Shown here in pieces: positions 1-64,000 of a DNA stretch of 64,000 bases. How positions within the stretch are numbered: position 1 is the stretch's first letter; each line of letters begins with the position of its first letter. The stretch lies in NCBI RefSeq assembly GCF_048403405.1, contig NZ_CP183129.1, one strand, 5' to 3'. The notes under the pieces are model-generated. The model did not search any database. It saw nothing but the letters and a program-made list of their open reading frames with translations, and was not told the DNA's origin. The translations under genes were made by a program, and so were the position numbers. This DNA is from Escherichia coli (GTDB lineage Bacteria > Pseudomonadota > Gammaproteobacteria > Enterobacterales > Enterobacteriaceae).

Positions 1-18
1 GAAGTGTGGTTTGCGGGT

Positions 19-1704: not shown

Positions 1705-2420
1705 TTAAAGTCTTAATTGTCGATGATGAACCGCTTGCACGGGAGAACCTGCGCGTATTTTTGCAGGAGCAGAGCGATATTGAAATCGTTGGAGAGTGTT
1801 CAAACGCCGTAGAAGGGATCGGCGCGGTGCATAAACTGCGCCCGGATGTGCTGTTTCTCGATATCCAGATGCCGCGCATCAGTGGTCTGGAAATGGTGGG
1901 GATGCTCGACCCCGAACATCGACCGTATATCGTTTTTCTCACCGCGTTTGACGAATACGCTATTAAAGCCTTTGAAGAACATGCCTTTGACTATCTGCTG
2001 AAGCCAATTGATGAAGCGCGACTGGAGAAAACGCTGGCGCGTTTGCGTCAGGAACGCAGTAAGCAGGATGTTTCGCTGTTACCGGAAAATCAACAGGCGC
2101 TGAAATTTATCCCTTGTACGGGGCATAGTCGGATCTATTTGCTGCAAATGAAAGATGTGGCATTTGTCAGCAGTCGGATGAGCGGTGTCTACGTTACGAG
2201 TCACGAAGGGAAAGAGGGCTTTACCGAATTGACATTACGTACCCTGGAAAGTCGTACACCACTACTGCGCTGCCATCGTCAGTATCTGGTTAACCTCGCG
2301 CATTTACAGGAGATTCGTCTGGAAGATAACGGCCAGGCCGAGTTGATTTTGCGTAATGGCTTAACCGTGCCGGTCAGCCGCCGTTATCTGAAAAGCTTAA
2401 AAGAGGCGATTGGCCTGTAA
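1701..2420 (+). CDS. btsR: LytTR-family response regulator BtsR (YehT)
   Basis: ORF 1686..2420 trimmed to the ATG at 1701 ([16 protein letters not shown] receiver start); C-terminal LytTR-type region; translationally coupled to btsS. Confidence 0.9.
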
Positions 2421-2466
2421 AAGGCTGCTAAAATGGCTTTTTGCCTCATCAACACCTGAAGGCCTC

Positions 2467-2937
2467 ATGCTAAGTAACGATATTCTGCGCAGCGTGCGCT
2501 ACATTTTGAAAGCCAATAATAATGACCTGGTGCGTATTCTGGCGCTGGGTAATGTCGAAGCCACCGCGGAACAGATCGCCGTCTGGCTACGTAAAGAAGA
2601 CGAAGAGGGTTTTCAGCGTTGTCCGGACATTGTTTTGTCGTCATTCCTCAATGGCCTGATTTATGAAAAACGCGGCAAGGATGAGTCTGCTCCGGCACTG
2701 GAGCCGGAACGTCGCATTAATAACAACATCGTGCTGAAAAAATTACGCATCGCGTTTTCGCTGAAAACCGATGATATTCTGGCGATCCTCACCGAACAGC
2801 AGTTCCGCGTTTCGATGCCGGAAATTACGGCGATGATGCGTGCACCGGATCATAAAAACTTCCGCGAATGCGGCGATCAATTTTTACGTTATTTTCTGCG
2901 TGGACTGGCAGCGCGCCAGCATGTGAAGAAAAGCTAA
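2467..2937 (+). CDS. yehS: DUF1456-family protein YehS
   Basis: ORF 2410..2937 trimmed to the internal ATG at 2467 (MLSNDILRSVRYIL...), matching the recalled 156-aa YehS; synteny after btsR. Confidence 0.8.
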   Translation: MLSNDILRSVRYILKANNNDLVRILALGNVEATAEQIAVWLRKEDEEGFQRCPDIVLSSFLNGLIYEKRGKDESAPALEPERRINNNIVLKKLRIAFSLKTDDILAILTEQQFRVSMPEITAMMRAPDHKNFRECGDQFLRYFLRGLAARQHVKKS

Positions 2938-2946
2938 GACGGGTAT

Positions 2947-2972
2947 GGCGGCCATGCAAAAACATGGCCGCC
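2947..2972. terminator. bidirectional hairpin between convergent yehS and yehR
   Basis: Perfect 10-bp inverted repeat ggcggccatg / catggccgcc (2947-2956 and 2963-2972) with a caaaaa loop, lying between the two converging stop codons. Confidence 0.6.
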
Positions 2973-2978
2973 GACAGA

Positions 2979-3440
2979 TTATTTCACTTCTTTAAAACCA
3001 GCGGCTTTCATCACCAGTTCCATTTGCGCCATAGTGATACCTTTTTTGGCATCTTCAGCAGAAACGTTGATTCCTGAAATACCCTGCAGGGCTTTGAAAT
3101 CCACTTTTTCCATATCGATAGTCACGTTTTCCTGCGCGTAGGTATCGGTATAGGTTAATTTTTCTTCAACACCCGCGATGTTTTTGTATTTGGCGCTTAA
3201 CGGCTCAAGTGTCTTGGCAGCATCTTCTTTGGTGGTTGCACCAATGGAGGCAAATTGAATTTTGGTTTCAGAAGATTGCTTAAGCACCTTGTCACCTTTG
3301 TAGACATAGGTAATGGCAATTTCAGTACCGTTCAGATTGGCGCTGAATTTTTTCGATTCTTCTTTGTCACCGCAGCCAGCAAGAGAGAAAACCAGAACAG
3401 ATGCAACAACGAGGGAAAACAGCTTATTGAAAGCCTTCAT
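2979..3440 (-). CDS. yehR: lipoprotein YehR (DUF1307)
   Basis: ORF 2979..3452 trimmed to the ATG at 3440 (MKAFNKLFSLVVASVLVFSLAGC); signal peptide with lipobox LAGC. Confidence 0.8.
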   Translation of the reverse strand: MKAFNKLFSLVVASVLVFSLAGCGDKEESKKFSANLNGTEIAITYVYKGDKVLKQSSETKIQFASIGATTKEDAAKTLEPLSAKYKNIAGVEEKLTYTDTYAQENVTIDMEKVDFKALQGISGINVSAEDAKKGITMAQMELVMKAAGFKEVK

Positions 3441-3564
3441 GTAAAACTCCATTTTATTTAATCAAGAAACTGGTGACTCTCACCAGGGGCTATATAGGAT
3501 ATGCCTAATACCGTGGCGTGAGCAGTCCGGAACTGGAGTGGAACTCTTAGTAAAAAGCACTATT

Positions 3565-5565
3565 TCATCCTTGTTGCTGAAGCATGGGGAATAATTGTTC
3601 GCAAAGCAAAACACCGTTATTCATTGCTTCTACCCGTGCCTCGCTTTCTGTATTACGAAATTGTGCCAACACATGTGCCAGCCGATAAAAACCGACCGCG
3701 GTGAGGTCATTCGCCAGCAACTCTGCCTGACCAATAGCACTCTGTTCCTGATAGCGCCAGCCGTTATGGAGCAGTTGAATAAGTAACGCCTGGCAGCGCA
3801 TCAGCAACTGATGAGCGGTAGACGGCACAGGCAAAACGCTGGCAGAAGGTAGCGGTGCCACAGGCGCAGTTTCTGCGTCCAGCGCCCAGGCGCGGGTTTT
3901 TGTCATCATCACCCGTGGTTCCAGTGTCAATTGCCCCTCTACAAAGCTGACAAAGCCAGAAACCAGACTCACGGGGTCGTCTGTTTGTTGCAAAAGCGCC
4001 GCCATGCGTTCAACGGCATAAGGCGCGCTGGCTGAGGCTGGCAGTGATAACGTCAGCAGATTATCTTCACCTTCGCCGCTGATTACCTGCGCATCCAGCG
4101 TCTGGCGGCTGCTATCCCAACCGAGCGAAATACACTCAGCGACCGGCAGAATAAATAAGTTATCGACCTGATTAAGAGGCCGTATGCAGGCGGGAGGACG
4201 CTGGCGTAAATATTCCCGCAAAGCCACAATGCCCGGCTGGCGCAATGGCGCGCTCAACATTTGCCAGGCATCAGGCGACAGCGGCACAACGCTGCTTAAG
4301 CGGTTGCGGGTAGCTAACAGCAGCTCGCCATCGGCACTGCGTTTTGCTGCTTGTGAAACAATTTGCCCGCCCGCCAGTGCGCCAGCCTGAAAACTAAACA
4401 GCCGACGCGTAGCTGCCGGTGAGTTTTCCTGTTCACTTCGCGGCCAACTGCGCGAAAGGTGCAAAATACTGCCGGTGTCGGGATCGGTAAACCAGATGCG
4501 TAAACCATAATGCTCAATATCCTGCCAGCAACGCATACCTAAAGACACCAGCCGCAGATGATCAAGCTTTGCTTCTCCGGCAATGCCAGCGCCAACGACC
4601 GTGCGCCACGGCACAGGAGGAACTTCACCAACACTGTCGCGCCGGGTCATCTCTTGTGCGCAATTTAATCGACTGTTTAATGCCGCAAGCTGACGTAAGC
4701 ATTCTCCGGCATAATAGTGGCTGGCGCGGGCGTGGAAGGCATCAACGCTGGCGCGCAGTTGCCGTAGCGATTCACTCACCCATCGCCAGTTGCAGCGTTC
4801 CGCCGCCTGCTGCGCGCGGCTGAAAGCGGCCTCGTAGTGAATAAGCGGCTGGCTGATGCCGCTCAGCCATAATGCCTGGCTTAGTTGTTGAACATATTGA
4901 CGACACGTTTTGCCTTCTTCGCTGGCAAACGGATCGTCAGATGATGTGACGTGTTCGCTGCGCATCTGCCAGATTAAATGAGTCAATTCCGCTTGCTGCG
5001 CTTTTGCCTGGACAAAGGCCTGTACTGCCAGTACGACATGTTCGCAAAGTGTGCCTTCAATACAATCACAGCGTGCGAAGCGAATGCTGCTGCGGGAATA
5101 AAAACGTACATCGCTCATCGGTAAGCGGGCAGAGGGAATTTCGCCCGGCGTACAGAACAACTCAATGGTGATGCCTTTAGCGACCAGTGCCTGTGCGCGT
5201 TTGCGGGTGGCATCGGGCAGGGTAGCCAGTTCTTCCAGCCAGATTGCCGGATCCCACTCTTCTTCTTTTTCCGTAGGCTGGGTGGTGGCGCAAAGTCGCT
5301 GATAACTTAAAACCAGCATCACGCGATGGCGGCACATGCCGCTGGCCCCGCAGCTGCACTGAGCCTCTTTCAGTGCCTGACCGTTCGCCAGCTGGGTGCG
5401 GACACCGTCACTGAAGGTGGCGATTAAAGCGCCGTTCTCATGGCTGATCTCCGGGACGTTGCCATTTTCCAGTTCCTTAAGACTGCGCTTAACAAAACCG
5501 GCATTGCTTAACGCTGTCAGGGGCTGCGGTGTCAGTTCTAATAATTCCGGACGTAGTGAATTCAT
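3565..5565 (-). CDS. yehQ: SWIM zinc-finger protein YehQ
   Basis: ORF 3565..5589; start chosen at the ATG at 5565, which has a GGAGA SD and overlaps the yehP stop (ATGA). Two CxCx5CxH SWIM-like motifs (CSCGASGMCRH, CDCIEGTLCEH). Confidence 0.75.
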   Translation of the reverse strand: MNSLRPELLELTPQPLTALSNAGFVKRSLKELENGNVPEISHENGALIATFSDGVRTQLANGQALKEAQCSCGASGMCRHRVMLVLSYQRLCATTQPTEKEEEWDPAIWLEELATLPDATRKRAQALVAKGITIELFCTPGEIPSARLPMSDVRFYSRSSIRFARCDCIEGTLCEHVVLAVQAFVQAKAQQAELTHLIWQMRSEHVTSSDDPFASEEGKTCRQYVQQLSQALWLSGISQPLIHYEAAFSRAQQAAERCNWRWVSESLRQLRASVDAFHARASHYYAGECLRQLAALNSRLNCAQEMTRRDSVGEVPPVPWRTVVGAGIAGEAKLDHLRLVSLGMRCWQDIEHYGLRIWFTDPDTGSILHLSRSWPRSEQENSPAATRRLFSFQAGALAGGQIVSQAAKRSADGELLLATRNRLSSVVPLSPDAWQMLSAPLRQPGIVALREYLRQRPPACIRPLNQVDNLFILPVAECISLGWDSSRQTLDAQVISGEGEDNLLTLSLPASASAPYAVERMAALLQQTDDPVSLVSGFVSFVEGQLTLEPRVMMTKTRAWALDAETAPVAPLPSASVLPVPSTAHQLLMRCQALLIQLLHNGWRYQEQSAIGQAELLANDLTAVGFYRLAHVLAQFRNTESEARVEAMNNGVLLCEQLFPMLQQQG

Positions 5566-6698
5566 GACTGAAGATTCTCCGCAAGCCATGATGCCAGCTC
5601 GCCCGGTGTCATGGCGGCTATTTGTGCGCCGACATTAACCAGCGCCTGGGCCGTATCGTGGTCATAGCAAGGTGTTGCGGTGCTATCGAGCGCCGCCAGT
5701 CCCAGTACTTTGATGCCGCTCTGGACACACTTTTTCACCTGATGCGTCAGTAATGATGATGAACCCCCTTCATAAAAATCGCTCACGAGGATAATGACGC
5801 TTTTTGCTGTTTGTTCAATAAGTTGCCGACCATACTCTACGGCACTGGCGATATTGGTTCCGCCGCCTAATTGCACTTTCATTAATAACTCTACCGGATC
5901 GGCAACGTCGGCGGTGAGATCGACGACGCTGGTGTCAAACGCCACCAGATGGGTACGAATGCCGGGTAACTGCCATAAACAGGCCGCCATCACCGCAGAG
6001 TGGATCACCGAGTCAACCATCGATCCGCTTTGATCAACCAGTAAGACCAGTTGCCATTGATCGCTATGGCGCTTAATGCGGCTGTTAAAGCGGGGGGATT
6101 CGATATACAACTTGCCGTGTTGCGGATGCCAGTGTTGCAGGTTGGCACGCAGGGTACTTTTGAAATCGAAATTACGCGCCAGTGGAATAAATGAGCGGCG
6201 ACGGCGATCGCGGACACCAGAAAAAGCCTGGCGAACTTCCTTTGCCAGTCGCGCCATAATCTCTTCAACAACCTGGCGCACTATCCGGCGGGCGGCAGCC
6301 AGCACTTCGGGATTCATCAGATGTTTGGTGTGCAAAACGGCGCGTAGCAGGCTTTCAGAAGGCTGCATACGTTCCAGCACGTCGAGATTCGTCACCACAT
6401 CTTCAATGCCGTAGCGCAGTACGGCATCGCTTTCCAGCCGCTCAATCACCCGTTGCGGAAACAGTGTGTGAATACTGTTGATCCACTCAGGGGTGGTGAA
6501 ATTTGAGTCACCTAATCCACCGGAGCGTTCACCACGCTGGAGCCGTTCAGGATCGCGCCCATACAGCCACTCCAGCGCGTGGTCTATCTGCCGGGCGTTG
6601 TCATCCAGCCCACAAAGCGTCGTTTCTGCCGCTTCGCCAAGAATTAATCGCCAGCGTTGTAGCTCACGGGTGGTCAGAAGATCGTTCAGTTCAGACAT
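5562..6698 (-). CDS. yehP: von Willebrand factor A (VWA) domain protein YehP
   Basis: ORF 5562..6926 trimmed to the ATG at 6698 (MSELNDLLTT..., 378 aa). MIDAS-like motif DQSGSM; start overlaps the yehM stop by 8 nt. Confidence 0.85.
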   Translation of the reverse strand: MSELNDLLTTRELQRWRLILGEAAETTLCGLDDNARQIDHALEWLYGRDPERLQRGERSGGLGDSNFTTPEWINSIHTLFPQRVIERLESDAVLRYGIEDVVTNLDVLERMQPSESLLRAVLHTKHLMNPEVLAAARRIVRQVVEEIMARLAKEVRQAFSGVRDRRRRSFIPLARNFDFKSTLRANLQHWHPQHGKLYIESPRFNSRIKRHSDQWQLVLLVDQSGSMVDSVIHSAVMAACLWQLPGIRTHLVAFDTSVVDLTADVADPVELLMKVQLGGGTNIASAVEYGRQLIEQTAKSVIILVSDFYEGGSSSLLTHQVKKCVQSGIKVLGLAALDSTATPCYDHDTAQALVNVGAQIAAMTPGELASWLAENLQS

Positions 6699-8970
6699 GG
6701 AAAACTCCCCAGTGTTGCAGCGATGCCAGTGCCTGCTGTTCGAGTTGTTGATGATGTGCAATGGCTTGCGGTGGACAATGCAACGGCATTTGCAGCGCTG
6801 AAACGGGAAGCTGTGCGAGCTGGTAATGCTCAAGCACCTGATGCGCCAGCGTCCCGCGTTCTCGTGGTGGTAGCCAGGCCATCGCCGCGCGTAAATCGGG
6901 CAGGGCGTTAATAAAATCGTCGTCACTCAGTTGATTTAAATGACTACTGAAACCGGCGATAAATGCCGGCTGACAGGCCAGTTGATGGCGGGCCAGCGCC
7001 AGCAAACCGTGCAGCGCTTCGCCGGATTGTGCCGGGGATAATTGCGCCAGCATTGTCAGCGCCGCTTCGGCACTGGCGTTGGGATGTTCCAGACGCATCA
7101 GTGCGCCAAGAGCCGCGCCGCGATCCAGCGCCGGGGCATGAATCGCCTGACTGCGGCGCTCCAGTAAGGCTACCGCCGCAGAAAGCGAAACGCCGGGTAA
7201 ATTAACGCCGCTATGTAGATCGCGCAGGATATGGCAAAGCGTCTGCCAGCTATGCAGGTGAGCGTGAAACTCCTTTTCATCTGGTCTGCCGTTAGATTCA
7301 CACAGCCACAGCGTGCGATCGATAGCCGCGCATAACGTCGTTTGTAATATCTGCGCGCCTTGCATACCGCTAATTTCATCCAGCCGCCATAAGGCATATA
7401 GCACTTCCAGCGCCTGGCCCATTTCGGCAAATTGATTTTCCTGGGCGATTAATAATGTGAGTTGCTCCAATAATTGTTGACTGAAGGACGCCAGACCCGC
7501 TAACGCCGCCTGGCTAAGACATGTGGTGATGCAGCCGATTCCACCCGCGTCCAGCATATCGGCTTCTAATTTATGGCGTGCGGCTTCCTGGAGTGTTGCA
7601 CCAAAGCAGGCGGCCTCAATCAATGCCGCATGTTGGCTAAGCGGGCGGGTTAATTTCCAGCGTTCTTCACCGTTGCCTGCAAGTGTCAGTGTACTTCCCT
7701 GCTGGCGCACAACCCCTGGGATCTCCAGTATTACCAGCCGATGTAACACCTGACTTTGCGCCAGTCCATTGGAGTTAAAGCGATTTAAGGTAAGCTCCGC
7801 CGGAAGAGAGATTGCGGTACGTTCCAGTTCGCAGGTGACATCTTTTGGCAGAGGCGGTTGTGGCGTAGAAGGGGCAAGTTTACCGAATCCGTCACCCGCT
7901 AATGTGTCTATCAACGTTAGCAGAATCGGATCGGTATCGGGATGAATAACGCCGCGATAGCTCCACGGCAACGGCGCATTCAGGGCTTCTTTAATCAGCG
8001 ATCCTGCTATGGCATCCAGCCAGTCAGTGCGTAACGGTAGTGTATGACCGCGCAACTGTGCCAGTGCCATCGCATGCAGATGAGCGGCAGCCATATCCGC
8101 GGTCGAAGCAGGCAACTTGTGCTGGCGCAAACGGGTGAGAACCGTTTTTAGCAGTTGTTCTCCCGCCTGCTGTAAGCCCCACTGCCAGCACCAGTTTTGC
8201 CAGACCGGGGCAGGCATTCCTGAAAGGTATCCTGCCAGCACATCAAGGCGCTTTTCACTGTAGGGGGTGAGATAACAACCTGTAACGGCATCATCCAGTA
8301 AGAGCAATTCTGGCGTGTTAATTACCTGCAGACATTCGCGCCACATTTTTGCCAGTGCCGGAGCGTGCCAGCCACCGCAGACAACTAACACGTCGCCATT
8401 ATTTTGCTGCATCGCCCATCCAATCCAGCGGGCCATAAAGGCTTCGCGCTGACGATTGAGAGCATCTCCGGGGGAGTCGCCCCGCAGTTGGGCAAAATAG
8501 TGCGCAAGTGCAGAGGGTAATGCAGTTTGCTGGCTTTCATCTTCGAACAAGTGATCCCACAGGGTGTCGCTGTTATCCATGCGGGTGGCACGCAGCAGCA
8601 AGGTCTGGCTTTCCTCTTGCGTATCAGGCGAATCGTCCTCTTCTTCACTCTGCGCCCAGCAAGGCAAATCGATGAAGTAAGTTTGTGCCTGAATACGACG
8701 AGCGGCTTGTAGCGCCTGCCACTCCGGCGAAAATTCAGCAAATGGCGTCCAGGCACCACGCCCGGGGGCCGCACCGTCCTGATACTGGCAATAACTGTAA
8801 ATAGCTACCGGAAGCTGGTGAGCTAACAACAGTTCGTCTACCCGGTCATTAAAATCAGCCGGGCCTTCAATCAACACGTATCGTGGCCGCTGGCTTTCGA
8901 TTAACGATTTCACCAGCCGGGCGCAGGCCGGACTATGATGCCGGATGCCGACAATTAACGGCTCGCTCAT
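6691..8970 (-). CDS. yehM: uncharacterised protein YehM
   Basis: ORF 6691..9111 trimmed to the ATG at 8970 (MSEPLIVGIRHHS..., 759 aa); operon position between yehL and yehP. Confidence 0.8.
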   Translation of the reverse strand: MSEPLIVGIRHHSPACARLVKSLIESQRPRYVLIEGPADFNDRVDELLLAHQLPVAIYSYCQYQDGAAPGRGAWTPFAEFSPEWQALQAARRIQAQTYFIDLPCWAQSEEEDDSPDTQEESQTLLLRATRMDNSDTLWDHLFEDESQQTALPSALAHYFAQLRGDSPGDALNRQREAFMARWIGWAMQQNNGDVLVVCGGWHAPALAKMWRECLQVINTPELLLLDDAVTGCYLTPYSEKRLDVLAGYLSGMPAPVWQNWCWQWGLQQAGEQLLKTVLTRLRQHKLPASTADMAAAHLHAMALAQLRGHTLPLRTDWLDAIAGSLIKEALNAPLPWSYRGVIHPDTDPILLTLIDTLAGDGFGKLAPSTPQPPLPKDVTCELERTAISLPAELTLNRFNSNGLAQSQVLHRLVILEIPGVVRQQGSTLTLAGNGEERWKLTRPLSQHAALIEAACFGATLQEAARHKLEADMLDAGGIGCITTCLSQAALAGLASFSQQLLEQLTLLIAQENQFAEMGQALEVLYALWRLDEISGMQGAQILQTTLCAAIDRTLWLCESNGRPDEKEFHAHLHSWQTLCHILRDLHSGVNLPGVSLSAAVALLERRSQAIHAPALDRGAALGALMRLEHPNASAEAALTMLAQLSPAQSGEALHGLLALARHQLACQPAFIAGFSSHLNQLSDDDFINALPDLRAAMAWLPPRERGTLAHQVLEHYQLAQLPVSALQMPLHCPPQAIAHHQQLEQQALASLQHWGVFHV

Positions 8971-8980
8971 GCATCTTTCC

Positions 8981-10069
8981 TCACGGCAGGCGGTGGCGAG
9001 CTTGATAATAAGCCTGCCAGTGAGCTTCTTTATGTGTGGCGACGCGCTGTTCGAAGTAACGGCGCAGACGCGCGCGATCTTCTTCGTTATCTTTGACGAT
9101 GGTTCCGGCAATACAGTCCACCAGGTCGGCAGGCTCCCCCGCGCGATTCGCTAAAAACCAGGCGCGGACACCCACAGCATGGGCCACGTTAACGGCTTCA
9201 GCGGTGGACATAATCGCTGTCAGTGTATCCATTGACGTTTTCTTTTCGCCGTTGGCACGCAGATCGCGGAACGTGCGCACCAGTAATTCCAGTACCGCGT
9301 CAGGCACTTTATGCGGAATACCGCTATGGGCCAGCAAACGCGCCGAAGCACTGGCAACCAGTTCCAGCTCCTGGGCGAAATCCATAATCGGAAAGACAGT
9401 TTCAAAATCGAAGCGACGCTTTAGCGCAGCACTCATTTCATTGACGCCGCGATCGCGGGTATTGGCAGTGGCAATAATATTAAAGCCTTCCCGCGCATAG
9501 AGCTGACTGGCTTCACCAGTGAGTTCCGGCACCGTCATTACCCTGTCAGAAAGCATACCTAACAGACAGTCTTGTACTTCCAGCGGTGTACGCGTTATCT
9601 CTTCAAAACGGACGATTTTGCCGTCGCGCATTCCCTGGTAAAGCGGGGCAGGGACCAGCGCTTCCGTTGATGGACCATGATTGATAAGCAGAGCGTAGTT
9701 CCAGCCGTACTTGATTTGATCTTCGGTGGTAGATGCGCCGCCCTGGATGGTTAACCCGGCATCGCCGCTAATAGCGGTTGCCAGTAATTCAGACAGGAGA
9801 GATTTTGCGGTGCCAGGTTCCCCCACCAACATCAAACCGCGCCCGGTGGCAAGAGTGACTAACATACGTTCGACAGCGGAGGGACTAATCACCACTTTAC
9901 GGCTAATATTTTGCGCGCTATCGCCAAGGATAAAAGCACGGGCCGCAGGCAAACTTAACTGCCAACCGGGCGGGCAAGGTGCGTTATCATTTTGTTTTAA
10001 TTTTGCCAGTTCATCGGCGTATAACACAGCAGCAGGCGGACGCTGCAGATGATTATTCTGCGGTGACAT
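8981..10069 (-). CDS. yehL: MoxR-like AAA+ ATPase YehL
   Basis: ORF 8981..10135 trimmed to the ATG at 10069 (MSPQNNHLQ..., 362 aa). Walker A GEPGTAKS; Walker B-like IVRFEE. Confidence 0.85.
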   Translation of the reverse strand: MSPQNNHLQRPPAAVLYADELAKLKQNDNAPCPPGWQLSLPAARAFILGDSAQNISRKVVISPSAVERMLVTLATGRGLMLVGEPGTAKSLLSELLATAISGDAGLTIQGGASTTEDQIKYGWNYALLINHGPSTEALVPAPLYQGMRDGKIVRFEEITRTPLEVQDCLLGMLSDRVMTVPELTGEASQLYAREGFNIIATANTRDRGVNEMSAALKRRFDFETVFPIMDFAQELELVASASARLLAHSGIPHKVPDAVLELLVRTFRDLRANGEKKTSMDTLTAIMSTAEAVNVAHAVGVRAWFLANRAGEPADLVDCIAGTIVKDNEEDRARLRRYFEQRVATHKEAHWQAYYQARHRLP

Positions 10070-10180
10070 ATATTCATCCCTGAAATGTATTAATGAAATA
10101 AACGATATTTTACGCGCAATAAATGTTTGGCGCATTAGTTGTTTGAGCGAAAAATATCTGGAAAGCAGATCACAGTAAAT

Positions 10181-10204
10181 AAAAAAACCTGCTGGTGAGG
10201 CAGG
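10181..10204 (-). terminator. rho-independent terminator of the OrzO-like sRNA
   Basis: Hairpin cctgc-tggtgag-gcagg (10188-10204) flanked on the plus strand by aaaaaaa (10181-10187), i.e. a 7-U tract after the hairpin on the minus strand. Confidence 0.65.
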
Positions 10205-10263
10205 TTCTTTTATTTACTATTTTCAGGCCCAACACCGCAGCCTGTGCAACATCGTGTTCCAAC
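10181..10263 (-). ncRNA. orzO: OrzO-like antisense sRNA (type I antitoxin), divergent from the zorO-like toxin gene
   Basis: Minus-strand promoter TTGCAA (10293-10298), 17-nt spacer, TATAAT (10270-10275); roughly 85-nt transcript ending at the terminator. Its 5' region is the reverse complement (19/20) of a leader segment of the downstream toxin mRNA. Confidence 0.6.
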
Positions 10264-53899: not shown

Positions 53900-55311
53900 T
53901 GCGCGCTCCTTTTTCGCCGCGAAATAGCTACATTTTGATGCGTATCGTTCGGCACTCTGGCAAAGATGAACGCCGGAAGGGCAATGATAAACGCCATGCT
54001 AAGCCAGGTGTACATAAAGACGGTTTGTGTGGTGCCGCTGTCGACGCTGACATGCTGCGAACCAAAAAGTCCCAGCAACAGCCCGGCGATGGTGACGCCG
54101 ATACTCATCGACAATTGCATAATCATCGACAGCAGGCTGTTTCCGCTGCTCGCCAGATTGTCCGGGAGATCTTTCAGCGTCAGGGTGTTCATGGAGGAGA
54201 AACGCGTCGAGTTGACCATCCCTTGTAAAAACAGGACGAACGGCAAAACGTAGTACCAGCCCAGCAGGGCGGTAGTCATAAACAACAGGGTGACCAGCGA
54301 CAGACCCAGCGTGGTCGCCACCAGTACCCGACGATAACCAAAGCGATTCACCACCTGTACCACAATTCGCTTCATCCCCATGCTGCCGAGCACCATCGGG
54401 ATCATCATCAGTCCGGCATGAAACGGTGAGAAGCCAAGGCCAATTTGCAGGAAAACCGGCGTCATAAAGGGCAACATGCCGCTACCGATACGTCCGGCAA
54501 AACTCCCCGCCAGGCCCAGCGAAAAGGTACGAGTACGGAACAGTTTCAGACTGAAAAGAGCGCGGTTGTTATTTCTGGCGTGCAGCAGATAAAGCACCAG
54601 TGCTACCACGCCAACTGCGACCAGGCCAGCAATCGCCAGCGGCGATAAACCTGTACCTTTACTGCCGTCCAGCGCCAGGGTTAATACCGCCATGCCAACC
54701 GCCAGCAATAAAAAGCCGAAGAGATCAAAGCGCCGCGTCTGCATGGTGTAGTTCGGCATTAACATCAGTGTGGCGATCGCACCGATAATCCCCACCGGAA
54801 TGTTGATCAAAAAGATCCAGTGCCAGGAGGCGTACTCCACCAGCAGGCCGCCGAGCGCCGGACCGAGCAGCGGCCCGACCTGACCGGGTAACGTGACAAA
54901 GGTCATCGCCGCCATATATTGCTCGCGCGGTACGATTTTCATCACCGTCAACCTGCCGACCGGCACCATCATCGCACCGCCAACGCCCTGTAACGCGCGT
55001 GCCAGCAACAGTTCGTTCAGCGTGCCGGAAAGCGCGCAAAACAGTGAACCGAGAGTAAACAGCACGATGGCGGTAAAGAAAATATTGCGCACGCCGACTT
55101 TGTCCGCCAGCCAGCCGCTGGCAGGCAACATCACCGCCACGGTCAGCACATAAGAGACAATGACCATGTGCATATGCAACGGACTTTCCCCGAGGCTTTG
55201 CGCCATTGAGGGAAGGGCGGTGTTAACGATGGTGGTGTCCAGCGACTGCATAAAGAAGCCGAAAGCCACAATCCACAATTGCCAGCGGGTGCTGTCGGGA
55301 AGATCTGTCAT
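53896..55311 (-). CDS. mdtD: MFS transporter MdtD
   Basis: 471 aa; 14-TM-like MFS; overlaps the baeS start. Confidence 0.9.
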
Positions 55312-58300
55312 TTACTCGGTTACCGTTTGTTTAGGTTTACGCGAAAAACGCAGCCGCAGACGGTCGAAAAAGAGATACACCACCGGCGTGGTATACAGCG
55401 TCAGGAGCTGACTCATTACCAGACCGCCGACAATGGTGATCCCCAGGGGTTGCCGCAGCTCCGAGCCGTCACCGCCCGACAATACCAGCGGCAGCGCGCC
55501 AAACAGTGCTGCCAGGGTGGTCATCATAATCGGGCGAAAACGCAGCAGACAGGCCTGGAAAATAGCTTCCTGCGGCGTCAGGTTACCGTGCCGTTGGGCT
55601 TCAAGCGCAAAATCGACCATCATAATGGCGTTTTTCTTCACGATGCCGATTAATAGCATGATCCCTATCAGGGCGATTAGGCTGAACGGGGCATTGAACA
55701 GCTCCAGCGCCAGCAGCGCTCCAACGCCCGCCGAGGGCAGGGTGGAGAGAATCGTCAGCGGATGTACGTAACTCTCGTAAAGGATACCCAGCACGATATA
55801 CACCGTGGCGATGGCGGCGATAATCAGGATCACCTGCGAGTTCATCGTCTCCTGGAATACCTGCGCCGTGCCGGCAAAACTGCCGCGCACCGTCGAAGGC
55901 ACGCCAAGTTGCGTCATTGCGCGATCGATCGCCGCACTGGCGTCCGAGAGCGATTTCCCGGTCGGCAGGTTGAACGAGATGGTCGAGGCTGCCGATAATC
56001 CCTGATGATTCACCGATAGTGGGGCATTCGCCGGTTGCCATTTAGCGAAATACGACAGCGGGATCGCTTTTCCTTCGTTATTGATAACGAACATTTTTTC
56101 CAGCGCGCTGATGTCCTGGGTATAGCGCGGATCCACTTCCATCACCACTTTATACTGGTTCATCGGCTGGTAAATGGTCGAGATTTGCCGCTGACCGAAG
56201 GCGTTATTTAAAAGGCTGTTGGCGGCCTGTACATCGATTCCCAGCCGTGCCATGGTGTCGCGGTCGTAAACCAGATTCATCTCCGCGCCGTTATCCTGCT
56301 GATCGGAGTTCACGTCCGCCAGTTCCGGCAACGTCGCCAGTTTTTTGCGGATTTTCGGCTCCCATTCGCGCAGTGCCGCCAGGTCGTCGGATAACAACGT
56401 GTACTGGTAGCTGGCGTTCGACTGACGCCCACCAACGCGAATATCCTGTACCGCCATCAGGAACAGATTCGCCCCCGGTTCTTTCGCCAGTTTTACGCGC
56501 AGACGGTCGATAATTTGCTGCGCCGTTTCGCTGCGTTCGTCGCGTGGCTTGAGGGTGATAAACATCATCCCACTGTTCACCCGCGAACCGCCGGTAAAGC
56601 CGGTGACATTATCCACCGCCGGATCGTCACGGATAATTTTCATAAAATCCTGCAACTTACCGCGCATCGCCTGAAACGAAATACTCTGATCCGCCTGTAT
56701 CCCGCCCATCAACACGCCGGTGTCCTGCTCCGGGAAGAAGGTTTTCGGGATCGAGATATACAGCCAGATATTCAGCGCAATGGTGCCAAGCAGCACCACG
56801 CCCACCAGACGGGTATGATTGAGCACCCATTTCAGCGACTTGCCATAGCCTTGTTGCAGGGCTACCAACATGCGACCAAAACCACGCAGTCGCTTTTGCT
56901 CGCGCGGCTTGCTGGCTTTCAGCATCCAGCCACACATCATCGGCGTTAGCGTCAGGGAAACCAGCAACGAAATACCAATGGCGACAGAAAGCGTCACGGC
57001 AAACTCGCGTAACAGTCGGCCCGGCAATCCGCCCATCAACAGCAGCGGTAGGAACACCGCCACCAGTGACAGACTCATCGACAGCACCGTAAAACCGACT
57101 TCGCGAGTACCTTGTAGCGCGGCCTGTAGCGGTTTCATCCCCGCTTCCAGATGACGGGCAATGTTTTCCAGCACCACGATGGCGTCATCCACCACAAAGC
57201 CAGTGGCGATGGTGAGCGCCATTAACGAAAGGTTATTGAGACTGAATCCGCACAGGTACATCGCCGCAAACGTACCAATCAGCGAAACCGGCACCGCAAC
57301 GGCGGGAATAATAGTGGCGCGACCCGAGCGCAGGAATAAAAAGACCACCAGAATCACCAGCGCCACCGAGATAATCAGCGTTTGCTCGACTTCTTCCAGC
57401 GAGGCGCGAATGGTGGGGGAGCGATCCTGGGCAATTTGCAGATCAATTGCCGCCGGAATGGTTTCCTGCAACTCCGGTAATTTTGCCCGGATGCTGTCAA
57501 CCGTCTGGATAATATTGGCTTCCGGCAGCTTGCGGATCATCAGCAAAATAGCCGGTTTGGCGTTGGTCATCCCGGCGTTGCGCACATCCTGCACCGAGTC
57601 GGTCACCGTCGCCACATCGCCCAGACGAACCGCGCCGCCGTTGTTGTAATGAATAATCAGCGGCTGATATTCAGCGGCGGTTTTTAGCTCATCGTTGGTC
57701 TGGATCTGCCAGCGGTGAGTGCTATCTTCCAGCGCCCCCTGCGGTTTACGCACGTTGGCATTGCTGATGGCGCTGCGCACATCGTCCAGCGACACGCCCT
57801 GATTAAACAGCGCCTGCGGATTCAGCCCGACGCGTACGGCGGGCAGCGAGCTGCCGCCAACATCGACATCACCGACACCGTCGATTTGCGAAATCGTCGG
57901 AGCCAGCTGCGTCGAGGCGAAATCGTACAGTTCACCCTGCGAATAAGTATCGGACGTTAGCGTGAGGATCATAATTGGCGCATCCGACGGGTTCGCTTTG
58001 CGATAGGTCGGGCGGCTGGGCATCCCGCTGGGCAGCAAACTTTGTGCAGCGTTGATCGCCGCCTGCACATCGCGCGCTGCGCCGTTGATATCCCGGTCAA
58101 AATCAAACTGCAAAATAATGCGCGTGCTGCCGAGCGAACTACTGGAGGTCATTTCACTAACCCCGGCAATGCGCCCAAGTGAGCGCTCCAGCGGCGTGGC
58201 AACGGAAGACGCCATTGTTTCTGGTGACGCACCGGGCAGCGAGGCGCTGACCATAATCACCGGAAAATCGACCTGCGGCAGCGGGGCGACCGGCAGCATA

Positions 58301-58389
58301 CGGAAGCCCAGTATGCCGCACAGGGTAATGGCGACCGACAGTAAAATCGTCGCCACCGGGCGGTAAATGAAGAGGGCAAAAAACTTCAC
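55312..58389 (-). CDS. mdtC: RND multidrug efflux pump subunit MdtC
   Basis: 1025 aa; RND permease; adjacent to mdtB with no gap. Confidence 0.95.
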
Positions 58390-61300
58390 TTACGCCTCCT
58401 CTTCATGACGGGCAAAGCGGCTTTTGGTCCACAATGCCAGGCGGTCGAATAGCAGATAAATCACTGGCGTGGTAAACAGAGTCAGCACCTGGCTGACAAT
58501 CAGACCGCCGACCATGCCGATACCTAACGGACGACGCAGTTCCGCGCCGACCCCGGTACTCAACATCAGCGGCAGCGCGCCAAGCAGTGCCGCCAGAGTG
58601 GTCATCAGGATCGGACGAAAACGCAACAGACAAGCCTGGTAAATAGCTTCGCGCGGCGACATGCCTTGCTCGCGCTCAGCAGCCAGCGCGAAGTCGATCA
58701 TCATGATGGCGTTCTTCTTCACGATACCGATTAGCAAAATAATGCCGATAATTGCAATCACATCCAGTTCGCTACCGGCAATCATTAACGCCAGCAGTGC
58801 GCCGACCCCTGCGGTGGGTAGCGTCGAGAGAATGGTGATCGGGTGAATAAAGCTCTCGTACAGAATGCCGAGCACGATATACATCGCCACCACCGCCGCG
58901 ACAATCAGCCAGACAGTGCTGCCCAGCGCCGACTGGAAGGCGAGGGTGCTGCCCTGGAACTGCGTGGTGATATCCACTGGCAGATTCAGCGTCTTTTCGG
59001 TGTCCATAATCGCCTGCACCGCATCGCCCAGCGAATAGTTATCCGGTACGTTAAAGGAGATGGTCGTTACCGGGAACTGATCCAGATGGTTGATGGAAAG
59101 CGGCGCAAAACGCTGCTCAATTTTGGCAATTGAGCTTAACGGCACCACGCCACCGTCGCTGCTGGTCAGGCGAATGGTATCCAGCGCCGCAAGCCCTGGG
59201 GTATTTTCGGTATTGTGCTCCAGCACCACGCGATACTGGTTGGCCTGAGTATAAATGGTGGAAATCAGCCGCTGACCAAACGCGTTGTACAGGGCGTTAT
59301 CGACATCCGCCATACTGATCCCCAGACGGCTGGCGCTGTCCCTGTCGACATTGACATACGCCACCAGCCCTTTGTCCTGCCAGTCGCTGGAGACATCAGA
59401 AAGCTGTGGCAGCTGCTGGAGTTTTTCCATCAACTGTGGCACCCAGGTACTGAGCGCATCCAGTGACGTGGCCTGCAAGGTAAACTGGTACTGGGTGCGG
59501 CTGACCTGAGTATCGATGGTCAGGTCCTGCGTTGGTTGCAGGAAGAGATCGACGCCCGGCACTTTATCCACCGCCGTTTGCAGACGGGCGATGACTTTTT
59601 GCACCCGGTCATCTCGTTCATCCAGTGGTTTGAGGTTGATCTGCAAACGCGCACTGTTCAGCGACGGGTTAGTGCCATCAACGCCAACAAATGAGGTCAG
59701 GCTTTGCACTGCCGGATCCTGCAAAATCACATCCGCGACCTGGCGTTGCCGCTGGGCCATATTGGCAAAGGAGCTGGATTGCGGTGCCTGCAAAGTGCCC
59801 TGAATAATGCCGTTGTCCTGTACCGGGAAGAAACCTTTCGGAATGAATACCCACAAGAGAACACTAAGCAGCAGCGTGCTGAGTGCCACGCTTAAGGTCA
59901 GCCACGGATGATTCAGCACTTTCGCCAGTCCACGACCATAGGCGGCGATTATCCTGTCGAACATTTTCTCCGAGGCTCGGGAGAAGCGATTCTGTTTACG
60001 CAGCGACTCCTGGCTGAGCATCCGCGCGCACATCATCGGCGTCAGAGTCAGCGACACCACGGCTGAGATCAAAATCGCGACTGCCAGAGTAATAGCAAAT
60101 TCGCGGAACAGTCGCCCGACGATATCGCCCATAAATAGCAGTGGGATCAACACTGCAATCAGTGAGAAGGTCAGCGAGATAATGGTAAAGCCGATTTCAC
60201 CCGCGCCTTTGAGCGCCGCCGCCAACGGTTTTTCGCCTTTTTCGATATAGCGGGAAATGTTTTCGATCACCACGATGGCGTCATCGACCACAAATCCGGT
60301 GGCGATAGTTAACGCCATCAGCGTCAGGTTATTGATTGAAAAATCGAGAAACACCATGACCGCGAAGGTGCCGATTAACGACAGCGGCACTGCGACGCCG
60401 GGAATGATAGTCGCCGGAATATTACGCAAAAACAGGTAGATAATCATGACTACCAGCGCGATAGCCATCATCAATTCAAACTGAGTATCATCGACGGATG
60501 CGCGAATATTGGTGGTACGGTCAGAAAGTACCGTCACTTTTACCGATTTCGGCAAACTCTCGGTGAGTTGTGGCAGCATCTGCCGGATGCTGTCGGCGGT
60601 GGAGATAATGTTAGCACCGGGCTGGCGCTGAACATTCATCACGATGGCCTGTTCTTTGTTCGCCCACGCGCCGAGCCAGCTGTTTTCTGCGCCTTGTTCT
60701 ACGGTTGCGACATCGCCAAGACGAATCGGCGCGCCGTTCTGGTAGGCGATGATCAGCTGGCGATACTCTTCGGCGGATTGCATCTGGTCGTTCGCGGAAA
60801 GCGTGACCGCACGGGAAGGGCCGTCGAGGCTACCTTTTGCCGAGTTAACGTTAGCGCCGGTAATAGCGGTGCGCACGGTTTCGCTGGTCAGGCCGAGGGC
60901 GGCAATCGCCTGAGCGTTAAGTTTGACACGAACAGCCGGACGCTGGCCGCCGGAAAGCGTCACCAGGCCGACACCGGAAATCTGCGAGATTTTCTGCGCG
61001 ACGCGGGTTTCCACCATATCTTCCACTTGCGTCATTGGCATGGCGGTTGAGGTGACGGCGAGCGTCATGATTGGTGGATCTGCCGGGTTCACTTTGCTGT
61101 AAACCGGCGGGTTAGGCAGATCGCTCGGCAACAAGTTGGTCGCAGCGTTAATCGCGGCCTGCACTTCCTGCTCGGCGACATCCAGCGGTAATGTTAGCTG
61201 GAACTGTAAGGTGATAACTGACGCACCGCCGGAACTTTGCGACGACATCTGTTTCAGGCCAGACATCTGCCCAAACTGGCGTTCAAGCGGCGCGGTAACG

Positions 61301-61512
61301 GCAGAGGTCATGACATCCGGGCTCGCACCTGGGTAGAGCGTGACTACCTGAATGGTCGGATAGTCCACTTCCGGCAGCGCCGAAACGGGCAGGGCTCTAT
61401 AACCGATAATCCCAGCGAGTAAGATCGCCACCATCAGCAGCGTGGTGGCGACAGGACGCATAATAAACAGGCGCGACGGGCCGCCTGTGCTGCTCGGGGG
61501 TAACACCTGCAT
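58390..61512 (-). CDS. mdtB: RND multidrug efflux pump subunit MdtB
   Basis: 1040 aa; RND permease paralogous to MdtC. Confidence 0.95.
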
Positions 61513-62759
61513 CAGGAGCGTGCTCCTTTTTTCGCGTATTCGCGGCTGGTGGCTTTCTCTTCCGGAGTGGTGGCGCTCTGGGCTTCCACTACTTCCACTT
61601 TCGCCCCTTCGGTCAGGCGATCAATGCCGTCTGTCACTACGCGGTCGCCCGCAGAAATACCTGCGCGGATCACCACTTTCTGACTGTCCTGAATGCCCGG
61701 CGTCACCAGATGTTTGCTGACCTTGTTTTCGCTATTCAGCACCCAGACAAAATGGCCTTCGTTGCCCATTTGCAGAGCGGCGGTGGGGATCACCACGGCG
61801 TTTTGTTCGGTGTCGACTAACATACGCGCGTTAACAAACTGATTGGGAAACAGCGCATCATCCTGATTATTAAAGCGTGCTTTCACTTTAATCGTACCGG
61901 TAGTGGCATCGATTTGGTTATCGAGGCTTAACAGCGTGCCTTCACTTAATTTCTTCGAGTTGGTGCGATCCCAGGCTTCTACCACCAGCGGTTTTCCGGT
62001 TTTTTGCGCCTGTACTACGGTAGCGATATCGCTTTCCGGCAGGGTAAAGAGCAAATCGATAGGATGCGTCTGGGTGATCACCACAATCCCGGTGGTATCA
62101 CCACTGGAGATTTGGTTACCAACATCAACCTGCTTGAGACCAACGCGACCATCGATTGGTGCGGTGATGCGGCTCCAGTCGAGCTGCAGCTGCGCGCTGG
62201 CGACGCTTGCTTCATCAGCCTTAATGGTGCCTTCGGTTTCACTGACCAGCGCCTGTTGGGCATCCAGCTCCTGGCGGGAGACAAGATTGGTTTTTGCCAG
62301 TTGTTGATAACGCGCCAGGTCACGGCGGGCGTTGGCAAGCGTGGCTTTATCTTTTGCCAGTTGGCCCTGGGCTTGTGCTAATGCAACTTTGAACTGGCTT
62401 GGGTCAATTTCTGCCAGTAAATCGCCTGCTTTGACCTGCTGGCCTTCCTGGAAATGTAACGCCATCAGTTGACCGTCCACGCGGCTGCGCACCGTAACGG
62501 TATTAGCGGCGGTAATGGTGCCAAGCCCGGTGAGATAACGTGGCACAGCTTGTTCTACGGCAGTCGCCGCCTGAACCGGGGCTAATGGGCCGGCACGCAT
62601 ACCACGGCGACCACCCGCTGGCGATTGCTGCGCTTGTTTCGTCGCCCCTGGGGCTGCACTCTGGGAGTCATTGCGGCCTTGCCAGAACCAGAATGCGGCG
62701 ATGGCGGCGATAACCAACACGATTACGATTACCCAACGGGATTTATAACTGCCTTTCAT
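61512..62759 (-). CDS. mdtA: RND efflux membrane fusion protein MdtA
   Basis: ORF 61512..62906 trimmed to the ATG at 62759 ([14 protein letters not shown]..., 415 aa); TM anchor then periplasmic adaptor domains. Confidence 0.9.
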
Positions 62760-62812
62760 CGTTAAGAGTTTCTCTTCCTGAAACGTTTCACGGAATGATA
62801 CTAGTGTAGCCA

Positions 62813-62830
62813 GCCAATAAGGGAGAAAAA
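62813..62830 (-). promoter_or_regulatory. BaeR box upstream of mdtA
   Basis: Minus strand reads TTTTTCTCCCTTATTGGC, matching the recalled BaeR consensus TTTTTCTCCATDATTGGC; about 55 nt upstream of the mdtA start. Confidence 0.65.
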
Positions 62831-62984
62831 TGGAGGAATTATGAAACACTGTCGGGAATCGTCTGAATGACGGGCACATTTGCGAGCACGCATCCAGTAA
62901 TAACACATGAAACTATTTTATCTGCAAGTTAGCGATAGACTGCTTGCATGGCGAAAGGAGGTAAGCCGCCGTTTTCAGCGGGAC

Positions 62985-63130
62985 GCTGAAACGGGAAAGC
63001 CCCTCCCGAGGAAGGGGCCTTAAATAAGGAAAGGGTCATGATGAAGCTACTCATCATCGTGGTGCTCTTAGTGATTAGCTACCCAGCATACTAAGACTAC
63101 CAGGGCGGGGGAAACCCCGCTCTACCCTCA
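62985..63130 (-). ncRNA. sibB: Sib-family antisense sRNA, copy 1 (approximate bounds)
   Basis: Candidate minus-strand promoter TTGACA (63160-63165), 17-nt spacer, TACTTT (63137-63142); transcript would cover the whole ibs ORF and SD in antisense. Ends are estimated. Confidence 0.45.
63038..63094 (+). CDS. ibsB: Ibs-family 18-aa hydrophobic toxin (IbsB-like)
   Basis: Not in the ORF track (below its size cut-off). atgatgaagctactc... encodes MMKLLIIVVLLVISYPAY; SD aaggaaaggg upstream. Confidence 0.75.
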   Translation: MMKLLIIVVLLVISYPAY

Positions 63131-63312
63131 CTCCTGAAAGTATGCCTTCACGATAAGATTGTCAATCTGCAGGCTTTGCAGTCTGCGATCCTGCCAGCAA
63201 ATATTCTTTGCGAGACGTTACGCAATAATCACACTGGAAACTATTTTATCCGCAAGTCAGCGATAGACTGCATACAGGGCGAAAGGAGGTAAGCCGACGA
63301 TTTCAGCGGGAC

Positions 63313-63458
63313 GCTGAAACGGGAAAGCCCCTCCCGAGGAAGGGGCCTTAAATAAGGAAAGGGTCATGATGAAGATACTCATCATCGTGGTGCTCTTAGT
63401 GATTAGCTACCCAGCATACTAAGACTACCAGGGCGGGGGAAACCCCGCTCTACCCTCA
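63313..63458 (-). ncRNA. Sib-family antisense sRNA, copy 2 (approximate bounds)
   Basis: Same promoter elements shifted by 328 bp (TTGACA at 63488-63493 on the minus strand). Confidence 0.45.
63366..63422 (+). CDS. Ibs-family 18-aa toxin, second IbsB-like copy
   Basis: MMKILIIVVLLVISYPAY; differs from copy 1 by L4I. Confidence 0.75.
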   Translation: MMKILIIVVLLVISYPAY

Positions 63459-63644
63459 CTCCTGAAAGTATGCCTTCACGATAAGATTGTCAATCCGCAG
63501 GCTTTGCAGTCTGCGATCCTGCCAGCAAATATTCTTTGCGAGTCGTTACGCAATAATCACAGAGGAAACTATTTTGGTCACGCGTTAGCGATAGACTGCA
63601 TTCAGGGCGAAAGGAGGTAAGCCGACGATTTCAGCGGGACGCTG

Positions 63645-63793
63645 AAACGGGAAACCCTCTCCCGGAGAAGAGGGCTTTTAATAAGGAAAGGGTTATGATG
63701 AAGCACGTCATCATACTGGAGATACTCTTAGTGATTAGCTTCCAGGCTTACTAAGAACACCAGGGGGAGGGAGAAACCTCTCCCTAACCCTCA
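63645..63793 (-). ncRNA. sibA: Sib-family antisense sRNA, copy 3 (approximate bounds)
   Basis: TTGACA at 63823-63828 on the minus strand; the -10 region has diverged (TAATTT-like); antisense to the third ibs ORF. Confidence 0.4.
63695..63754 (+). CDS. ibsA: Ibs-family 19-aa toxin (IbsA-like variant)
   Basis: MMKHVIILEILLVISFQAY; same leader context; carries a Glu in the hydrophobic core. Confidence 0.65.
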   Translation: MMKHVIILEILLVISFQAY

Positions 63794-63974
63794 CTCCTGA
63801 AATTATGTCACTCCGCCCTTAGTGTCAATCGACGGCTCTCCGTTCTTGCGAGGCGAATAGCAAAATTTTCTGCGCCGCCGGGCCTAATTCTGAAAGTTTC
63901 TTCGTTTGCTCTTATTTCATTATTGCAATCGGTATGATACCGGGCCTCAATAATTCTCTAAGAAAGGATTTCTT

Positions 63975-64000
63975 ATGAGCGAACAAATCACGTTTGCCAC
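63975..64000 (+). CDS. 5' end of an unidentified ORF truncated by the window edge
   Basis: ATG at 63975 preceded by AAGGA SD at 7-nt spacing; reads MSEQITFA...; only 26 nt are visible. Confidence 0.35.

Follow-up and report, generated by a model that had tools for sequence, protein, structure and literature searches.

yegL, the gene for a TerY-type vWA protein, begins beside the ibs/sib array at the edge of an Escherichia coli sequence and very probably heads the yegL-pphC-yegI operon

The plus-strand reading frame whose first 26 nt close the window (the whole stretch of Escherichia coli DNA analyzed here, 64,000 nt) is almost certainly the 5' end of yegL. This is an already annotated core gene, and positions 63975-64000 hold nothing novel. 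The best overall explanation of the locus, which we hold with considerable confidence, is a gene for a TerY-type vWA protein that heads the yegL-pphC-yegI operon, with YegL as the putative third component of a "TerY-phosphorylation triad" together with the phosphatase PphC and the kinase YegI. E. coli has few eukaryote-like kinase/phosphatase operons; yegL is the first gene of one of them, and this operon has TerY-P architecture.

Start of yegL and its genomic setting

Positions 63960-64000, read directly, are aagaAAGGAtttcttATGAGCGAACAAATCACGTTTGCCAC, and the letters closing the window are tctctaagaAAGGAtttcttATGAGCGAACAAATCACGTTTGCCAC. The ATG at 63975-63977 lies 6 nt downstream of a Shine-Dalgarno-like AAGGA (Table 1). 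Reading the frame backwards from this ATG, a TAA is reached 24 nt upstream, and no ATG, GTG or TTG occurs in frame between this TAA and 63975; the ATG at 63975 is therefore the first possible start of yegL. A stretch of 26 nt is by itself indistinguishable from chance, so the real test is the sequence past the window. The window itself contains only these 26 nt of the gene, and the remainder was deduced from genomes identical to it.

Table 1. Coordinates of features at the array and the start of yegL
Feature	Position	Strand	Basis and remarks
SIB_RNA copies	63023-63165, 63351-63493, 63680-63828	-	Rfam
ibs ORFs	63038-63094, 63366-63422, 63695-63754	+	L001 annotation
Sib antitoxin RNA nearest yegL (sibA-equivalent)	63680-63828	-	Rfam RF00113, 145.9 bits
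Intergenic region between sibA (-) and yegL (+), divergent	63829-63974	.	Rfam match bounds; 98% identical to K-12
TAA, in frame, upstream of yegL start	63951-63953	+	sequence read directly
AAGGA, Shine-Dalgarno-like	63964-63968	+	sequence; identical in K-12
yegL, first 26 nt	63975-64000	+	translation MSEQITFA; CDS (660 nt, 219 aa) runs past the window

Matches to a 601-nt query with its end at 64000 were found in 5416 of 5426 complete E. coli genomes. Among the matches listed, eight genomes were at 100%, and in every listed match the last bases are annotated as yegL. Over a longer distance, positions 39001-64000 (25 kb) are 100% identical, full length, to GN02461, TUM1226, 4621, MS 69-1 and one more genome, and positions 54400-64000 equal, base for base, positions 1-9601 of an extended region from NZ_CP095533.1 (hereafter L001; a window position is the L001 position plus 54399). 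L001 carries the annotation "yegL: vWA domain-containing protein" at 9576-10235, and in its genome the frame from 63975 is open for 219 codons and ends with TGA. The earlier note had described a good Shine-Dalgarno sequence plus ATG opening a plus-strand frame that begins MSEQITFA, and this description agrees with the AAGGA, the spacer, the ATG and the translation found here. An early in-frame stop, which that note held would speak against its reading, is absent from a genome identical over 25 kb. A real plus-strand gene thus begins at 63975, as had been proposed, and the annotation of identical genomes gives its identity as yegL.

The gene (660 nt, at least 80% coverage) is present in 5410 of the 5426 complete E. 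coli genomes, nearly always as one copy per genome and at 95-99% identity. Its product is identical to K-12 YegL (b2073, NP_416577.1) at 216 of 219 aa. At the nucleotide level, 21 differences from K-12 MG1655 fall in 21 codons, 18 of them synonymous and three non-synonymous (S55P, Q147R and K153R). This distribution of codon changes indicates purifying selection on yegL. When a phage collection was searched with YegL, only three unannotated metagenomic fragments at 34-45% identity were found; yegL is not a typical phage gene.

The annotated gene order in MG1655 is dgcE, alkA, yegD, yegI, yegJ, pphC, yegL, sibA/ibsA, sibB/ibsB, mdtA and mdtB. The window and its extension present the mirror image (mdtB, mdtA, three ibs genes, yegL, pphC, yegI, yegD, alkA, dgcE), and yegL sits between the mdtA-side ibs/sib array and pphC both in GN02461 and in MG1655. 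Across the intergenic sequence between ibsA and yegL and the 26 nt of yegL that follow it, identity to K-12 is 98%. The identity of the frame had been expected to tell whether the flank of the array matches K-12; with yegL found there and the MG1655 gene order retained, it does. The gene had also been placed "immediately after" the array. The two do adjoin, but "immediately" overstates their proximity, as the closest Sib RNA match, on the minus strand, has its 5' end at 63828, approximately 146 nt from the yegL ATG, and the ibsA stop (63754) is approximately 220 nt from this ATG.

The array is thus in its canonical place on the chromosome, flanked by mdtA and yegL as it is in K-12. The MG1655 array has two Ibs/Sib modules (sibA/ibsA and sibB/ibsB), whereas the window has three within 63023-63828. 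Given the canonical slot, the extra module is a local difference in copy number rather than a rearrangement. The sibA-equivalent RNA overlaps ibsA on the opposite strand (Table 1). In this IbsA copy, which adjoins yegL, codon 9 (63719-63721) is GAG (Glu) versus GTG (Val) in K-12 IbsA. The stretch with the Glu reads MMKHVIILEILLVISFQAY, its K-12 counterpart being ...ILVILLV..., and the paired Sib RNA has the complementary change. The toxic peptide thereby has a charged residue in its hydrophobic core, which might make it less toxic. On the mdtA side, the mechanical list of open reading frames gives mdtA a GTG start and 464 aa (61512-62906, minus strand), and RefSeq gives 415 aa (61512-62759); the extension is probably an upstream open frame and unlikely to be the real N-terminus. 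MdtA and MdtB, both encoded inside the window, are among the proteins named in a DNA-damage screen (10.1101/354589).

The promoters of both sibA and yegL should lie within the divergent intergenic region. A sigma-70 promoter scan of 63600-64000 returned no sites. An isolated TATGAT (63933-63938) could be a -10 element but has no convincing -35, and for want of a good one it was set aside as a yegL promoter. One terminator-like hairpin was found in the same scan, at 63655-63674; it belongs to the ibsA/sibA module and was rejected as a yegL element. Operon expression has been described as barely detectable in laboratory conditions (10.1101/303594; 10.1101/819920; PMC13232886). In strains that were infecting epithelial cells, yegL and yegI transcripts could be measured and showed differential expression (PMC10519790).

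Fold, metal site and relatives of YegL

YegL is a cytosolic protein of 219 aa. The Pfam VWA family (PF00092) matches residues 23-173 with E = 8.7e-10 and 39.5 bits (cut-off 23.8). An AlphaFold2 model based on a nine-sequence alignment (mean pLDDT 85.5, pTM 0.84) has alternating strands and helices, and only residues 1-15 and 215-219 are disordered in it. Comparison of this model with the PDB by Foldseek yielded 215 matches at E ≤ 0.001. The best-ranked of these were all vWA/MIDAS domains: ITIH4, collagen VI N5, anthrax toxin receptors 1 and 2 and vWF A3, and further integrin I domains, complement C2a, Rea1-MIDAS and archaeal ArnB with its paralogue. A sequence search of the PDB with YegL found no solved relative, the top match being ITIH4 at E = 0.2.

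An alignment was made of YegL, its orthologues on four distant plasmids and the three TerY proteins (TerY1, TerY2, TerY3) encoded in an IncHI2 tellurite-resistance cluster. In this alignment, the MIDAS motif is complete and invariant (D27-x-S29-x-S31, T94 and D131). W191, S195 and S200, which belong to a helix and tail outside the Pfam domain, are also invariant among the orthologues and TerY1-3. BLASTP aligned YegL with TerY1 at 31% identity (E = 5e-26), and the remote tblastn matches, in approximately 2300 plasmid records, are TerY paralogues of ter clusters. On the strength of these matches, YegL is by sequence a TerY-type vWA protein, and its predicted MIDAS metal site is complete. Presumably, the names of both YegL and TerY are carried by the same COG entry.

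NCBIfam families were rejected as assignments for the operon proteins, because all matches (cobaltochelatase vWA, Stp1 PP2C and lanthionine-synthetase kinase domains) were below threshold. The match of YegL to the cobaltochelatase vWA region had E = 6.9e-05 and 21.5 bits against a cut-off of 779.

The yegL-pphC-yegI operon and the TerY-P triad

pphC is adjacent to yegL and co-oriented with it, and the yegL stop overlaps the pphC GTG start by 4 nt (GTGA). The co-oriented yegI follows, its ATG overlapping the pphC stop by 4 nt as well (ATGA, L001 10990-10993, approximately 1.4 kb past the window end). Such overlaps at both junctions suggest that yegL-pphC-yegI would be co-transcribed and translationally coupled. 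Published work draws yegL within the operon, and reports that PphC has phosphatase activity and dephosphorylates autophosphorylated YegI in vitro, and that YegI is a Ser/Thr kinase that autophosphorylates on serines and crosses the inner membrane twice, with both termini cytosolic (10.1101/303594; 10.1101/819920 for both proteins).

PphC matches Pfam PP2C_2 with E = 1.6e-50. At the default threshold, Pfam detected no kinase domain in, and gave no match to, E. coli YegI; the Pfam Pkinase family matches YegI orthologues, one of them over the Pfam cut-off. A hydropathy scan of YegI revealed two hydrophobic segments (approximately 391-409 and 415-433), and its C-terminus comprises the transmembrane part, a coiled coil and a weak helix-hairpin-helix (HhH) match below threshold (E = 0.0011). 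YegI (L001 10990-12927) aligns with the kinase of the IncHI2 ter cluster at E = 3e-07, with its CPWC opposite CPYC, and a complete four-ligand zinc ribbon is at most putative in it. This zinc-ribbon-like CPWC motif is located just past the kinase domain. The CPWC and HhH elements fall within YegI residues of approximately 300-335 and 515-550. The two motifs hint at a possible nucleic-acid-binding element in a membrane kinase.

Relatives of the whole cassette occur on plasmids of Sinorhizobium meliloti, Pseudomonas fulva, Deinococcus sp. and Cupriavidus oxalaticus, where the vWA protein is 63-65% identical to YegL. The proteins have characteristic sizes (vWA approximately 220 aa, PP2C approximately 255-280 aa and kinase approximately 640-690 aa), and the genes overlap, abut or stand a few nt apart; the gene neighborhoods of the four plasmid cassettes are wholly different. 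An intact IncHI2 ter cluster has the order TerY1, TerX, TerY2, TerY3, PP2C, kinase, which includes the same vWA-PP2C-kinase order as in E. coli, and its PP2C aligns to PphC with E = 7e-06.

Some neighbors of these cassettes were also recorded. On a plasmid of Deinococcus sp. KNUC1210 (L005 10155-12150), the YegL-type triad adjoins genes for an HpcH aldolase and a StiP cysteine protease, and HpcH aldolase and StiP genes also go with the IncHI2 ter cluster (L007, L008). For at least one lineage, this plasmid connects the YegL subfamily with the biosynthetic module associated with Ter. The convergent gene after the triad is yegD (Hsp70-like, L001 12943-14295) in E. coli and encodes a J-domain protein on the Cupriavidus plasmid (L006 7865-10251), and an association of the triad with chaperones may be recurrent. 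Neither the J-domain protein nor a hypothetical protein beside the Cupriavidus triad has similarity to E. coli yegD, and a relationship of these neighbors to yegD was rejected on that ground.

According to Anantharaman, Iyer and Aravind (2012), as summarized in PMC11090510 and PMC4978471, the TerY-P (TerY-phosphorylation) triad comprises a TerY-like vWA protein, a PP2C and a Ser/Thr kinase. [quoted passage not shown] (2020) for a TerY-P variant with an OB-fold. It is very likely that yegL-pphC-yegI has this architecture of TerY-type vWA, PP2C and Ser/Thr kinase, the kinase activity of YegI having been published (10.1101/819920).

The locus was also searched with the PADLOC defense models. Neither YegL nor PphC had a match at E ≤ 0.001. 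With the search widened to E ≤ 10, the TerY model reached YegL at E = 0.013 (13 bits), PphC had no match, and YegI had weak matches only (PD-T4-6 and MkoA). With the TerY match this weak, none for PphC and weak matches to unrelated kinases for YegI, the PADLOC-defined TerY-P defense family was rejected for the locus. No ter genes (terZABCDEF, TerD, TerC) were found within 9 kb on either side of yegL, the neighbors there being mdtABCD, ibs/sib, yegD, alkA and dgcE, and this absence rules out membership in a Ter (tellurite resistance) cluster.

Proposed role and comparison with known systems

The metal bound by a vWA domain generally serves to contact an acidic side chain on a partner. In the mechanism that we propose, a divalent cation bound at the MIDAS of YegL would bind an acidic residue of a partner, which could be a target protein or the kinase or phosphatase itself. 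YegL would probably be controlled by phosphorylation in turn, the candidate acceptor being its conserved Ser-rich helix and tail (W191, S195, S200; segment 193-202, SSSLRSVSRS), and through YegL a signal dependent on metal or stress might reach the YegI/PphC switch. That YegL would act as a MIDAS-dependent partner or substrate of YegI/PphC is put forward tentatively, as a quite possible reading of the conserved residues and the operon. Counting against the overall explanation are the very low expression of the operon, the negative promoter scan of 63600-64000, the poor fit of the PADLOC models to YegL and PphC, and the Pfam search that detected no kinase domain in E. coli YegI.

Other explanations of the locus have to be weighed. 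yegL-pphC-yegI could be a stand-alone anti-phage system of TerY-P type (Gao et al. 2020), with YegL as a sensor or adaptor and activation by phage infection. Its gene architecture and order are those of TerY-P, and the cassette is horizontally mobile, appearing on plasmids from four distant lineages, each time in an unrelated setting. Moreover, in a genome-wide screen, endogenous DNA damage rose upon overproduction of YegL and of YegI (10.1101/354589), which counts in its favor, and the weak HhH (E = 0.0011) and zinc-ribbon-like CxxC of YegI would fit a link to nucleic acids. However, the PADLOC TerY-P models miss the proteins (E = 0.013 for TerY, none for PphC and weak, unrelated kinases for YegI), and the validated defense kinase has an OB-fold (PMC11090510), whereas YegI has a pair of transmembrane helices and a C-terminus of coiled coil and HhH. 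The locus is also fixed in 5410 of 5426 genomes, a near-universal core position unlike typical variable defense islands, and its expression is very low. We therefore regard this explanation as unlikely. It is more improbable still that YegL is a generic vWA/MIDAS protein (chelatase-like or adhesion-like metal binding) whose function is separate from PphC and YegI and whose operon linkage is incidental. vWA domains are indeed found in many unrelated systems, and the weak NCBIfam cobaltochelatase vWA match (E = 6.9e-05) points the same way, but this match is far under its cut-off (21.5 vs 779 bits). The vWA-PP2C-kinase order and tight spacing are kept in Alpha-, Beta- and Gammaproteobacteria and in Deinococcota while the surroundings differ completely, and 4-nt overlaps are present at both E. 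coli junctions.

It appears highly improbable that yegL is cryptic and in effect silent, left over from a cassette gained by horizontal transfer and now functionless in E. coli. Operon expression is not robustly detected in laboratory conditions, no consensus promoter was found in the scan of 63600-64000, and K strains tolerate the insertion of yegJ within the operon, all of which would be expected of a remnant. Against this stand an intact frame in 5410 of the 5426 genomes, the 18 synonymous versus three non-synonymous codon changes relative to K-12, the retention of every MIDAS residue, and yegL and yegI transcripts that are measurable and differentially expressed during epithelial infection (PMC10519790). 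Neither a dN/dS near 1 nor frequent frameshifting among natural isolates was seen. A bolder reading is that the core-genome cassette would be a functional, membrane-anchored TerY-P variant, with YegL as a phospho-regulated MIDAS adaptor through which a signal from the envelope, or of phage or DNA damage, would lead to a response directed at DNA. It fits the increased DNA damage upon overproduction of YegL and YegI as well as the HhH and zinc-ribbon-like elements of YegI, yet we consider it doubtful. If true, almost every E. coli would contain an unrecognized stress or anti-phage system.

The closest known counterpart is K-12 YegL, which has the same length (219 aa) and identical Shine-Dalgarno sequence, ATG and first 26 nt, and lies in the same slot beside ibsA/sibA and upstream of pphC; the three substitutions that separate the two proteins (S55P, Q147R and K153R) are conservative or at the surface. 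The operons differ in that K-12 has yegJ inserted between pphC and yegI on the opposite strand, while the genomes identical to the window are without it. The yegJ-free state is that of B strains and most pathogenic strains, yegJ being peculiar to K strains (10.1101/819920; PMC13232886).

TerY1, TerY2 and TerY3 of IncHI2 (R478-type) share with YegL the vWA fold and the invariant MIDAS residues at approximately 30% identity, together with a C-terminal motif F-x-W-[LVI]-[ST]-[ANS]-S...S, and in their cluster, as with YegL, a PP2C phosphatase and a Ser/Thr kinase come next. Specific to YegL are an N-terminal extension of approximately 20 residues (...NPEPRCP) and a P-x-GW-x-x-V C-terminus, whereas TerY3 has a TerY-C metal-binding domain that YegL does not have. 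YegL is not known to be connected with resistance to tellurite. A more distant counterpart is ArnB of the Sulfolobus ArnA/ArnB archaellum regulator, a structural match to the YegL model (8s05_B, 5a8j) with just 17-19% sequence identity. ArnB has a zinc finger and a longer C-terminal part, and belongs to another operon and another domain of life. It is a vWA protein that is phosphorylated and regulated by eukaryote-like kinases, and would illustrate, by analogy and not as evidence for YegL, that a kinase can have a vWA protein as its substrate.

With the TerY-P triad, yegL-pphC-yegI has in common a three-gene vWA/PP2C/kinase module and a zinc-ribbon-like CxxC past the kinase domain. Compared with TerY-P kinases, YegI has two transmembrane helices and a coiled-coil/HhH tail instead of a ZnR or OB-fold end, and compared with TerY-P systems, the E. 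coli operon is chromosomal, part of the core genome, and unattached to restriction or CoCoNuT systems.
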